64,000 bases of DNA from Dehalococcoidia bacterium (GCA_965207225.1 CBDBLV010000005.1:1376001-1440000), one strand, 5' to 3'; shown: positions 13,016 through 15,744, numbered from the stretch's first letter. Numbers and translations are program-made. Notes: a model not told the origin generated them from the letters alone.

Positions 13016-14026
13016 TTAGGCGGGGTCCTTAAGGCTGACCCTTTCCCTGACGGCGGGGTTTACGAGGTTGAGAGGCCAGTGACCGGTGAGGACACGGACC
13101 ATCTCCTCTCCGACGCGGCGGTGAAGGAGGTCGAAGGCGTTGTCGGAGTAAGAGGCGGTGTGGGGAAGGATGGCGACGTTGTCCATCTTGAGCAGGGGAT
13201 TGCCGGGGTCTACGGGCTCCTTTTCGAAGACGTCCAGGCCGGCGCCTGCTATTTCACCGCCTTGGAGGGCCTCGATGAGGGCAGGCTCGTCGACAACGGG
13301 GCCGCGGGAGGTATTGATGAGGAAGGCGGAGTTCTTCATCCGGCGGAACTGCTCGGCGCCCATGAGGTGATGGGTGTCGGGGGTGAGGGGGGTGTGGAGG
13401 GAAACGTAGTCGGACCTCTCAAGAAGCTCTTCGAAGGAGACGAGCTTTATCCCGACCTCGTCTGCCTGCTCCTGGGATATGAAGGGGTCGTAGCCGATGA
13501 CTTCGAGGCCGAAGACGCGGGCCTTCCGGGCCACGGCGCGGGCGATGTTGCCGCAGGCGACCAGTCCCAGGGTCTGGCCATAGATGGAGCCCATAGGATA
13601 GAGCAGGTCCCGGCCCCAGTTGCCGGCGCGGGTCCAGCCGTCCAATTTAATCAGCTTCTTGGCGGAGGCCAAGAGGAGCATCAGGGCGTGGTTGGAGACT
13701 TCTTCCCAGCAGAAGTCGGGGACGTTGGCGATGACAATGGAGTGGTCGGTGAGGGCCTGGGGATCCAGGGTGTCGATGCCGACGCCGTAGCGGACGACGA
13801 CCTTGCAGCCCGGCGGCAACGCGGCGGCAGCCTTGGCGCGAATCGGGGCGCGGATGTTGAGGATGCCGTCCATGCCTTGCGCGGCTTCAATTACCTCGTC
13901 CTCGGTCGTGCAGGGGATGGGTATGAGCTCGGCGCCGATCCGGGCGAGGGTATTGGTCTCGACGTCCAGGGGGGCGCCGAGGTTGTCGGGGTCGGTGTGA
14001 AGGACTCTGAATTTGGCTTGAGTCAT
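13016..14026 (-). CDS. D-isomer-specific 2-hydroxyacid dehydrogenase (CtBP-like)
   Basis: RYGVGID, LINTSRG, AGLDVFEKEP and LPHTAS motifs; start placed at MTQAKF. Confidence 0.93.
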   Translation of the reverse strand: MTQAKFRVLHTDPDNLGAPLDVETNTLARIGAELIPIPCTTEDEVIEAAQGMDGILNIRAPIRAKAAAALPPGCKVVVRYGVGIDTLDPQALTDHSIVIANVPDFCWEEVSNHALMLLLASAKKLIKLDGWTRAGNWGRDLLYPMGSIYGQTLGLVACGNIARAVARKARVFGLEVIGYDPFISQEQADEVGIKLVSFEELLERSDYVSLHTPLTPDTHHLMGAEQFRRMKNSAFLINTSRGPVVDEPALIEALQGGEIAGAGLDVFEKEPVDPGNPLLKMDNVAILPHTASYSDNAFDLLHRRVGEEMVRVLTGHWPLNLVNPAVRERVSLKDPA

Positions 14027-14110
14027 GACAAGTTTCCTCCGATCGAGGCATATGGTAGCCGTGACATACCGGACGGGCAACTCGCCGGTCTTTTATTCGG
14101 TTGTGGGTTT

Positions 14111-14152
14111 TTGATTGAACGTTGATTGAATTCATAGCCGGTTTGATTGAAC
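14111..14152. promoter_or_regulatory. Three TTGATTGAA direct repeats, candidate operator array
   Basis: Copies at 14111, 14122 and 14143, about 85-125 nt upstream of the dehydrogenase start. Confidence 0.45.
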
Positions 14153-14270
14153 GACGCCTAAAAGGGATTTCTGGGGATTTCGCGTGGCGGATGGGGGCAA
14201 GGGGAAAGGGTGGGGTTTTGATTGTTTTGCGGTTTCAGGCACGGCTTTGATTGTTTAAGGAACGTGGAGT

Positions 14271-14388
14271 GAACCCTCACCCCCTTGATCCCCCTCTCCC
14301 TTAGGGCCCTTAAGGGAGAGGGGGAGAGAAGAACAGAGACAGAGGTCGGCGCTTTTGCGCCGACCTCTGTCTCTAGTTCAATACTGGG
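14271..14388. repeat. Composite two-hairpin repeat, copy A
   Basis: CCCTCACCCC..CCCCCTCTCCCTT/AAGGGAGAGGGGG stem followed by a perfect 18-bp stem at 14335-14374; direct copy at 15207. Confidence 0.85.
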
Positions 14389-14444
14389 TAGAAGGGAAGG
14401 AATACCCCTCAGCAGCATAGGGAGACCCTCACTCCGCACCGGGG

Positions 14445-14469
14445 AGGGCGACCCGCCGGTCGCCCCTAC
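14445..14469 (-). repeat. GTAG-family REP
   Basis: Minus strand reads GTAGGGGCGACCGGCGGGTCGCCCT (GTAG followed by a palindrome). Confidence 0.7.
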
Positions 14470-14494
14470 GGGAACCCGGCCTCGCCCCTCGGGA

Positions 14495-14523
14495 TGGATT
14501 CCCGATCGGAGTCGGGAATGACG
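14495..14523. repeat. REP-like palindrome, GATTCC-N-GGAATGAC family
   Basis: TGGATTCCCGATCGGAGTCGGGAATGACG. Confidence 0.7.
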
Positions 14524-14599
14524 GGTGGGCAAGTCGGGGATGGCGGTGGGGTTGTGCGGTTGTGGGGTCTGGGTCTGCATTTTGTCTGTTTTGGCTGAG

Positions 14600-15090
14600 T
14601 AGGCGATGGAGGTCCAAACTCATATGCAGGGGGCGGGAGGCCAGCCTGCGCAGCCCCATAGGTTTGATATTGGTTCCGGGGGCGACCGAGAACGTCTCGG
14701 CGTGGGGCCATGCCCGTATACCAGTGGCGCTCACCCCCTCTATGAGGAGGGAGCGCGAACCCGCTACCGCCGTCTATGTGACGACGGTGGAGTCACATGG
14801 CGCTCACCCCTGTATGAGGGGGGAGCGTCGAACCCGCTTCCGTCGTCGACGTAGACGACGGTGGAGTCCCGCAAGGGCTCTAAGGCCCTGAGCCCGACAA
14901 AGTGGGGCCGTCCTTGTTCACCGGCAAGGTAAATGCCGGTTACGCAAGTACCCCGGTTAGGGGGCGTTTTGGGCAGAGTCTCTAAGAGAGGGGGCCTGCC
15001 CGTATCGAGTCGATGGACCATCCATCGCCTGGATGGTCAGGGAAGGGGCACGGGACCCGGTGGGGTCTCGGAGGCTTCCCTGGGTTTTTT
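14600..15090 (+). ncRNA. Candidate large structured non-coding RNA of unknown family (strand uncertain)
   Basis: No convincing ORF; continuous hairpins; two GCAA tetraloops; long-range closing stem 14601-14615/15015-15030; ends in a stem plus T-tract. Confidence 0.4.
14725..14868. repeat. Tandem duplication, 73-nt period, two hairpins per unit
   Basis: TGGCGCTCACCCC..GGGAGCG..GAACCCGCT..CCG..GTC..GACGACGGTGGAGTC at 14725 and 14798. Confidence 0.85.
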
Positions 15091-15106
15091 GTTCCTCCTG
15101 AAATCA

Positions 15107-15159
15107 TCGAAACTTAGTTCGAACCAGGAACAGTTTAGCACGGGTGTAATAGAAGTCAA
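15107..15159 (-). promoter_or_regulatory. Sigma-70-type promoter with downstream LexA-like palindrome
   Basis: Minus strand TTGACT-16-TAAACT with extended TG; TCGAACTAAGTTTCGA at 15107-15122. Confidence 0.5.
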
Positions 15160-15206
15160 GGGTCTTGGGTGCGGGTTTTGGGGGAATATCCCCCCGCCCC
15201 TCAGGG

Positions 15207-15323
15207 GAACCCTCACCCCCTTTATCCCCCTCTCCCTTGGGGCCTATAAGGGAGAGGGGGAGAGAAGAACAGAGGCAGACGTGGGTGCAACGCACCCACG
15301 TCTGCCTCTAGTTCAGTACTGGG
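15207..15323. repeat. Composite two-hairpin repeat, copy B
   Basis: Direct copy of 14271-14388; 18-bp stem at 15271-15309 with four compensated differences. Confidence 0.85.
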
Positions 15324-15342
15324 GAAAGGGGGGGACCGCCCA

Positions 15343-15380
15343 CCCCGCCCCAGATTCCTCGCGGGGCATCGGAATGACAT
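15343..15380. repeat. REP-like palindrome, GATTCC-N-GGAATGAC family
   Basis: 38 nt with 4 mismatches to 48761-48798. Confidence 0.75.
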
Positions 15381-15549
15381 GGCGGGAGGTGGGCTGGAAT
15401 GTTCAAGGGTGACGGATTGGCCACGGTGAGAGATCTCTCCCGGGGTATTGGGATGGGAGGATAGGGGGATCGGAACGGCGAGATAGGGGCATCGGGGTGG
15501 GGTTAACCGTCTGTGAGGACCAGGTCAGATTCCTGGGCGGGCAGTTGTG

Positions 15550-15579
15550 TTGCTAAAGGTGCGGGAAAATCAATATAAT
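15550..15579 (+). promoter_or_regulatory. Sigma-70-type promoter for the small ORF
   Basis: TTGCTA-18-TATAAT. Confidence 0.55.
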
Positions 15580-15639
15580 TGAAATATCGGGGCCGTGAAA
15601 TTTTCCGGTTCCGGACTCTCGGGGAAAGAGGTGTCTGAG

Positions 15640-15744
15640 ATGAAGAAGAAATTCATCATAATTGCCCTGATAGCGGCGGTAGTCGGGGCTGCGGCCAAGA
15701 TACTCAGGGGCCGCATGTCCAACAAGGAGGCGGAGGCGGACTAG
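15640..15744 (+). CDS. Small 34-aa single-helix membrane peptide
   Basis: MKKKFIIIALIAAVVGAAAKILRGRMSNKEAEAD; GAGGTG ribosome-binding site; own promoter. Confidence 0.65.
   Translation: MKKKFIIIALIAAVVGAAAKILRGRMSNKEAEAD

Follow-up and report, generated by a model that had tools for sequence, protein, structure and literature searches.

The window examined here is a 64,000-nt stretch of a Dehalococcoidia genome (4.03 Mb in 5 contigs, 92.3% complete). On its minus strand, a gene with an ATG at 14026, identified through Pfam as a 2-hydroxyacid dehydrogenase, is preceded by a block of nested repeats. A preliminary description had singled out positions 14600–15090 within this block as a large structured non-coding RNA (ncRNA) or, alternatively, a non-autonomous mobile element. 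The features of the block and of its gene-side flank are as follows, in the order in which the minus strand runs.

14082–15543: block of nested repeats, 1.46 kb, opposite about 26 nt at the orthologous site of species G007
15207–15331, minus strand: second copy of a 125-nt two-hairpin repeat, upstream of the promoter, with a terminator-like hairpin at 15270–15310
15132–15159, minus strand: class 2 promoter (four classes in all), sigma70-type, placed by a promoter scan and pointing into the element: TTGACT, 16 nt, TAAACT, the −10 being preceded by TG
15091–15100, minus strand: Shine-Dalgarno-like box CAGGAGGAAC near the predicted 5' end, read from the sequence; no conserved start codon behind it
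15038–15090, minus strand: domain 2, the hairpin CAGGGAAG...CTTCCCTG with a run of A (T on the plus strand), from sequence and fold; the shortest form of this domain
14601–15030, minus strand: domain 1, variable, closed by stem P1 (14601–14615 with 15015–15030), from the fold and consensus folds
14725–14794 and 14798–14868: two-hairpin module of about 73 nt, duplicated in tandem (spacing 73–74; families D5 and D8)
14552–14600, minus strand: tail rich in C and A and poor in G, with the motif CCCACAACCGCACAA at its end (plus-strand reading TTGTGCGGTTGTGGG)
14334–14375, minus strand: terminator-like hairpin with a 19-bp stem followed by TTCTTCTCTC, inside the copy of the 125-nt repeat at 14271–14396
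14093–14107, minus strand: second tail motif, followed directly by the neighbouring gene's own promoter
14080–14052, minus strand: promoter of the neighbouring gene (TTGCCC at 14080–14075, 17 nt, TACCAT at 14057–14052)
14026, minus strand: ATG of the neighbouring gene

Every pairing named in the preliminary description was found in place when the sequence was read. The long arms, AGGCGATGGAGGTCC (14601–14615) and GGACCATCCATCGCCT (15015–15030), close the domain in the MFE fold as had been proposed, and the closing helix comprises 21 or 14+5 pairs in the consensus folds. CCC-GCAA-GGG occupies 14868–14877 and TAC-GCAA-GTA 14941–14950, and beyond the closing helix CAGGGAAG (15038–15045) lies opposite CTTCCCTG (15075–15082), followed by a T run at 15085–15090. 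The folding energy of 14590–15095 was −268.5 kcal/mol on the plus strand compared with −221.0 ± 6.6 in dinucleotide shuffles (n = 100, z −7.2), and −246.8 kcal/mol on the minus strand compared with −193.6 ± 6.6 (n = 100, z −8.1). Shuffles folding as well numbered 0 of 100 on the plus strand and 0 of 100 on the minus strand. This comparison, which had been suggested as a check, thus places the fold far beyond chance on both strands.

The ORFs had been called unconvincing, and those overlapping the stretch (14562–14888, 14606–14851 and 14933–15409 on the plus strand, 14767–15021 and 14432–14734 on the minus strand) gave no Pfam matches, nor did the adjoining ORF at 14161–14580 on the minus strand. 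A coding reading was rejected on these grounds, together with indels that do not come in threes and an AAGGAGG box that has no start codon behind it. We also rejected a 41-codon ORF (14982–15107, minus strand) whose ATG lies upstream of the AAGGAGG box; this ATG is missing in the other class 2 copies read. Outside the stretch, a 34-codon hydrophobic ORF at 15640–15741 on the plus strand (MKKKFIIIAL...), missed by the gene caller, has its own promoter (TTGCTA-18-TATAAT at 15550–15579), and this region is conserved in G007.

The stretch had been assigned to no recognisable RNA family, and Rfam scans likewise returned no described one. At the gathering score there were no matches in the whole window to any family of Rfam 15, RNase P, tmRNA, SRP, group I and II introns, HEARO, OLE, GOLLD and ROOL included. 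A permissive scan (E up to 10) of 14600–15095 yielded only chance-level matches to mir-504, sn3071 and CRISPR-DR15, and one of 14000–15700 yielded chance-level matches only, mostly on two flanking hairpin repeats. ARAGORN detected no tRNA or tmRNA. When nine loci with other subtypes were searched against Rfam, nothing was found except two flanking tRNAs.

Copies of the element in the genome and the genus

A sequence search of the window's own genome with the element gave 73 matches; blastn gave 91 pieces in 48 clusters, and nhmmer, using a profile from 16 copies, gave 78 hits at 58 loci, a few of the weakest of which overlap well-scoring ORFs and may be false. Forty-six of the 58 loci are robust (summed nhmmer score ≥ 80). 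The preliminary description was right that the stretch is non-coding and structured beyond chance, but a single ncRNA gene is not what lies here. Neither the genome-wide repetition of the stretch nor the strong minus-strand promoter facing in from the right had been seen at that stage.

The family was found by BLAST in all 8 other species of the genus searched, with multiple copies in each, and was not found by BLAST outside the genus in 3 other genera of the family and 29 other families of the class (32 genomes). Scanning genome contigs for a pattern of the 5' module recovered 12 stretches, 11 of them in four chromosomes named 'MAG: Dehalococcoidia bacterium'; the twelfth, in a Holophagaceae MAG, was taken as a chance match without inspection. 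A pattern with a fixed 40-nt gap, run on 401 genomes, matched 3 genomes of the genus (G000 among them) and one from another family, but it is uninformative on distribution, matching just 1 site in the own genome. A limited search of the literature on Dehalococcoidia, sponges and intergenic repeats turned up no description of the family, though one may exist.

The copies are mosaics of a constant stem, an exchangeable domain enclosed by it, a second hairpin domain, and conserved sequence beyond both, with unit sizes of 0.55–0.8 kb. The invariant stem is 11–15 bp long, and its core, GGCGATGGA(A)G / C(T)TCCATCGCC, is identical in all domain 1 types. The enclosed domain, by comparison, occurs in at least 12 unrelated-looking types of 189–538 nt. 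The commonest (307–311 nt) accounts for 15 of 41 stem-bounded copies inside known loci; the 428-nt type of the window is unique in its own genome. For all 14 representatives of the domain 1 lengths, folding was stronger than in shuffles whichever strand was taken (20 shuffles each; z −2.0 to −9.7), and z was more negative on the minus strand in 10 of the 14. The internal tandem modules of the window copy share 88% identity over 70 nt (blastn), and two copies from species G005 carry three modules of the same ~73-nt two-hairpin type. Taken together with its reading as a self-contained minus-strand transcription unit, the stretch 14600–15090 is probably the core of a single copy of a mosaic element that is intergenic, genus-specific and present many times over.

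Compensatory change was assessed in eight copies of the window's subtype from six species, 79–86% identical to the window. The plus-strand structure (136 pairs) was 95.9% paired and the minus-strand structure (127 pairs) 97.1% paired across these copies, figures that are flattered because the structures were derived from these very sequences. On the plus strand, 9 pairs had changed on both sides, compared with 5.7 ± 1.2 in shuffles (reached in 3 of 500) and 0–3 in slid controls; the minus strand had 8 such pairs compared with 4.6 ± 1.2 (5 of 500). Compensatory changes are plain in the alignment for small hairpins such as those at 14769–14785, 14840–14861 and 14971–15001. Judged from these alignments, and with the pairing figures discounted for their derivation, the helix structure of the element is maintained and under selection. 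Recognition as DNA would be another way to account for the rarity of wobble pairs and the constancy of the stem sequence.

Rates of change in orthologous copies gave a mixed picture relative to third codon positions. The element was slower at leuS between G000 and G008 (5.5% vs 12–16%) and at nusA between G000 and G007 (14.4% vs 38.3%); it was not slower at pepQ (12.9% vs 11.3%) or nusA (15.3% vs 10.3%) between G000 and G008.

Promoters, neighbouring genes and empty sites

A sigma70-like site on the minus strand, pointing into the element, was present in 51 of 53 copies, compared with 76 of 2,000 random windows under the same rule. The promoters fall into four classes, whose genome occurrences lay at element loci in 18 of 18, 11 of 11, 11 of 11 and 12 of 13 cases, the thirteenth being just beyond the margin used; class 2, to which the window copy belongs, has 11 genome occurrences, all 11 at element loci. 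All 40 copies of classes 1–3 carry a AAGGAGGAAC-like box at a fixed 29–33 or 42/47 nt past the promoter. The 16S rRNA ends in ...CACCTCCTTTCT at its 3' side, to which the AAGGAGG box is perfectly complementary.

Based on gene calls from our own crude codon-usage caller, the gene on the tail side was co-directional with minus-strand transcription of the element at 50 of 57 loci, and the gene on the promoter side showed no direction preference (34 vs 24). Tandem regions offer the fair test of orientation, since divergent regions carry no orientation information, and among the 46 robust loci these were co-directional in 18 cases and opposed in 1 (24 other regions were divergent and 2 convergent). 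At two of the seven direction exceptions the gene on the tail side is an insertion-sequence transposase; in one case a 2590-bp insertion sequence splits the element, and in the other an insertion sequence of about 1.3 kb adjoins it. The 2590-bp insertion sequence occupies six sites in the own genome, five of them identical and one (C4:696490–699080) at 99.3%, and encodes a 530-codon ORF with an rve domain; its copy at C1:67072–69661 divides the element into C1:66915–67078 and C1:69662–70084.

The downstream genes are functionally unrelated, including leuS, nusA, moaA, uvrA, def, ribF, mnmA, katG and genes for amidohydrolases, PrpD-like proteins and CoA-transferases; these names come from reading translations, and Pfam confirmed the window's dehydrogenase. 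The genes retain their own promoters between the element and the start codon, and the promoters are kept at the empty sites compared. At 13 of 36 loci, including that of the window, tail and gene are separated by a co-oriented copy of the 125-nt two-hairpin repeat, and at the remaining 23 the gap to the called start codon is mostly 39–205 nt. Upstream of the element promoter, a co-oriented copy lies within 250 nt at 23 of 37 loci. For this repeat, seen twice in the window (14271–14396 and 15207–15331), nhmmer reported 163 hits across the genome. Its second hairpin has a stem that varies from copy to copy and is still perfectly paired (AGAGACAGAGGTCGGCGC vs AGAGGCAGACGTGGGTGC), with TTCTTCTCTC after the stem on the minus strand, and so resembles a terminator whose stem sequence varies freely.

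The composition of 41 tails was 41% C, 32% A, 15% G and 11% U, with a median C/G ratio of 2.9 compared with 1.0 in random 75-mers. Strict sigma70-like sites lay within 140 nt downstream of the tail motif for 9 of 27 motifs, compared with 53 of 3,000 random windows, and in 6 of these 9 the −35 box begins 41–43 nt past the motif. Behind 6 tail motifs (for example at C1:91618, C4:373417 and C5:1035507 in the own genome) we observed a conserved linker of about 42 nt (..CCGGYG..CACCRACC..CCGAACGAGTACAC..), which holds the −35 box of the adjacent gene at a constant 41–43 nt from the tail motif.

The tail motif occurs twice in the window, at 14093–14107 and 14552–14566, around a 445-nt block (14108–14551), and it looks as if a second composite insertion split the tail, duplicating about 10 nt (CGGTTGTGGG). 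Just upstream of the gene's promoter, 14108–14135 and 14215–14262 contain iteron-like runs of TTCAATCAA-type units, spaced about 11 nt from one another, on the minus strand; this layout, with the tail motif CCCACAACCGAATAA after it, is seen again in the own genome at C4:597659 and C5:73650.

Across species, the element was found upstream of leuS in 8 of 9, of nusA and of an aminoacylase gene in 4 of 9 each, of moaA in 3 of 9 and of a creatinase-like gene in 4 of the 8 compared; at orthologous sites its orientation was always the same and its enclosed domain often different. Three loci could be compared in filled and empty states: the window block (1462 nt vs about 26 nt in G007), nusA (992 nt vs 31 nt in G001) and the aminoacylase gene (931 nt vs 62 nt in G005). 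The native promoter was kept in the empty site at all three, and for the window the neighbour's promoter and flank (14052–14080 region) are retained in G007. The gene-side junction lay 0–7 nt upstream of the −35 box at all three and, in a comparison with G001, also at leuS. No direct repeat indicating a target-site duplication was present at the junctions of the three pairs; the inserted blocks are composites of several repeat families, so junctions of single elements cannot be isolated. The earlier suggestion of a non-autonomous mobile element came close to this evidence of multiple copies and empty sites in relatives. As a separate observation, several N-acyl-D-amino-acid deacylase-like paralogues in G001, G002, G004, G005, G006 and G007 contain one or two in-frame stops, mostly TAG, and may be pseudogenes or something else.

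No mobilising enzyme for the element was found. The own genome (92.3% complete) gave no matches to the TnpB-type domain PF07282 or the Y1 (RAYT) transposase PF01797 and no IS110 genes, and it contained no master copy in the form of an arm pair 0.9–6 kb apart enclosing a transposase-like ORF. It does encode three rve-type insertion-sequence families and four reverse-transcriptase ORFs, but their ends are not those of the element, and one of the insertion sequences has broken up a copy. Since the promoter, which lies upstream of the predicted RNA start, is part of the repeat, it must be DNA that spreads, through insertion or through recombination among copies.

Alternative readings and known systems

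Structure by itself gives no strand signal. Over 72 helix pairs common to both consensus folds in 10 copies, G-U occurred on the plus strand in 13 of 720 cases and A-C, which corresponds to G-U on the minus strand, in 12 of 720; Alifold consensus energies were also about equal (−174.1 for the plus strand, −181.9 for the minus). The preliminary description had preferred the plus strand, on which a large ncRNA would run from left to right and end at the hairpin and T run of 15038–15090. This reading draws on the GNRA loop at 14871–14874 (GCAA in 7 and GUGA in 2 of 10 aligned copies), the T.G closing pair in GGGCTCTAAGGCCC, the T run, plus-strand terminator-like sites at 15062–15084 in a scan for terminators, and a single-sequence MFE that is lower on the plus strand. 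However, a sigma70-like site within 200 nt upstream at that end was found by the same rule in 0 of 38 copies, compared with the 51 of 53 on the opposite strand, and the z-score is no better on the plus strand. The proposed terminator-like end is present as hairpin and T run in the window; in other copies the loop of the domain 2 hairpin carries inserts of 0 to about 160 nt, all enclosed by the supposed terminator stem, and the T run is often broken (TTGTT, TGTTT, TTCTT). We place the transcript on the minus strand because the promoter evidence is much stronger than the GNRA loops and T run. Plus-strand transcription of the stretch is disfavoured despite its GCAA and GUGA loops, and a plus-strand ncRNA appears highly improbable; judging from its sequence signals, the element is most likely read from the minus strand.

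Transcription might also be incidental, the element being a purely DNA-level, selfish, MITE-like repeat in which the hairpins are palindromic DNA or single-strand transposition intermediates, the inverted repeat is a transposase site and the RNA has no role. Presence and absence vary between species, composition is mosaic and nested, at least 12 domain types share one inverted-repeat core, helices contain G-U and A-C at equally low frequency, and rates relative to synonymous sites are mixed, all of which suit such a repeat. Yet the inverted repeat is internal, with homology continuing for about 50–90 nt beyond it on one side and for at least 150 nt, including a hairpin, the AAGGAGG box and the promoter, on the other; target-site duplications, arms enclosing a transposase, and Y1, TnpB and IS110 genes were not found in the comparisons and searches above; and the fixed spacing of promoter and AAGGAGG box in 40 of 40 copies is hard to explain unless transcription matters. 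We regard this reading as unlikely. Less probable again, to a similar degree as the plus-strand ncRNA, is a cis-acting 5' leader, riboswitch-like or attenuator-like, of the tail-side gene. Co-directionality with the downstream gene, short gaps free of a terminator-like repeat at 23 of 36 loci, and an alternative local hairpin, CCATCGCCTGGATGG, that competes with the long stem would be expected of a leader, but the genes have their own promoters between element and start codon, conserved at empty sites, and share no function, and in the window the 19-bp terminator-like hairpin (14375–14334) and a separate promoter (14080–14052) stand between element and gene.

Among known systems, the element appears to work most like Correia elements (CREE) or BIMEs, which are interspersed repeats that have promoters and hairpins of the RNase III type. 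On their defining features it does not match MITEs, REPINs or omega RNAs; it differs in its size, in the complete transcription unit it carries, in having an enclosed domain that is exchanged, and in lying at the −35 edge of host promoters. CREE of Neisseria are about 100–160 bp long, with terminal inverted repeats and a TA duplication. They resemble the present family as multi-copy, non-coding intergenic repeats with an inverted repeat and variable presence in related genomes, but the present unit is about five times larger (550–800 bp), its inverted repeat is internal, around a 190–540-nt exchangeable folded domain, it carries a complete promoter and a fixed AAGGAGG box, no duplication was seen, and its copies abut the host −35 box in one orientation. 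CREE are reported to be able to supply promoters to neighbouring genes and to form an RNA hairpin open to binding or cutting by RNase III (PMC2649163), two properties that the present family would share.

The present element is, like the BIMEs, a modular mosaic, nested and intergenic, with strong hairpins. BIMEs and REP mosaics of enterobacteria consist of a small recurring set of modules in nested intergenic arrangements with strong hairpins, their REP units being palindromes of 35–40 nt that are moved by Y1 (RAYT) transposases and mostly lie at gene 3' ends. Here, in contrast, no Y1 gene was found, and the modules are much larger, have promoters and lie on the 5' side of genes. Omega and HEARO RNAs of IscB–TnpB transposons are also large, structured, multi-copy ncRNAs from mobile DNA whose protein gene may be absent; the present family, by contrast, has no Rfam match and no PF07282 or Y1 domain in its genome, and its promoter-adjacent sequence is conserved and not guide-like. 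As in MITEs, the copies are short, non-coding and numerous (46–58 loci), with presence and absence among relatives (3 of 9 to 8 of 9 species). The inverted repeats, however, are not at the very ends, as copies are alignable well beyond both sides, and no full-length insertion sequence shares the element's ends, the rve-type ones having others. The AAGGAGG box recalls the STAB-SD of the Bacillus subtilis hbs mRNA, a strong Shine-Dalgarno sequence near the 5' end that is not used for protein, and RNase J is encoded in the present genome; the likeness is limited to one short motif, and STAB-SD examples are single mRNAs and not a repeat family. According to one report, a strong Shine-Dalgarno sequence with bound ribosomes blocks the 5' exonuclease RNase J1 (PMC5737220).

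A probable self-transcribed intergenic repeat

The reading we favour, with moderate confidence, is that of a minus-strand, self-transcribed, mosaic MITE/BIME-like repeat set upstream of host promoters and co-directional with the gene. Read on the minus strand, the predicted unit often begins with an upstream terminator-like repeat, followed by the repeat's own sigma70 promoter and a putative 30–47-nt leader that closes with the AAGGAGG box and leads into no ORF. Next would come a hairpin domain whose length varies, then the invariant 11–15 bp stem around the exchangeable folded domain, and finally the C-rich, G-poor tail. Insertion or recombination of DNA would set copies directly upstream of the host −35 box, co-directional with the gene.

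Transcription of the unit would yield a stable structured RNA of about 0.6–0.8 kb. Among sequencing runs matched to 14200–15400, none was listed as RNA; the five that matched, in contig form and from two studies, were of unrecorded type. Rho, RNase J and RNase III are all encoded in the genome, and the sequence signals suggest how each might act: 30S subunits bound at the AAGGAGG box may shield the 5' end from RNase J, and the long perfect stem may be a processing site of the RNase III kind. Transcripts would end at the terminator-like repeat where there is one, and in the window the hairpin at 14375–14334 is the likely 3' end of the minus-strand unit. Elsewhere, Rho may act on the C-rich tail, or read-through over the neighbouring promoter may add to the gene's expression.

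A stronger proposal can be made tentatively, and we hold it to be possible though rather doubtful: that the family is a mobile regulatory RNA module of an undescribed kind. Such an element would drive its own transcription into a large structured RNA, keep a constant frame around a folded domain that can be swapped, and home, always in the same orientation, to the upstream side of the −35 box of host promoters. Its value to the host would lie in tuning some fifty housekeeping and metabolic genes together, through its transcript or through read-through from its strong promoter, and so in wiring a regulon.

In practical terms, copy number should be checked before lone 'novel large ncRNAs' are named from one window in sponge-type Dehalococcoidia genomes. 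Bacterial interspersed repeats are usually short palindromes at gene ends, and the present family is larger, carries a complete promoter, keeps an invariant stem around an exchangeable folded domain and appears to lie, in fixed orientation, a few bases from the −35 box of about fifty unrelated genes. How such an element locates the upstream edge of a promoter becomes a testable question. Provided that its transcripts exist, the family would be a natural case of repeats spreading promoters and large structured RNAs through a genome.
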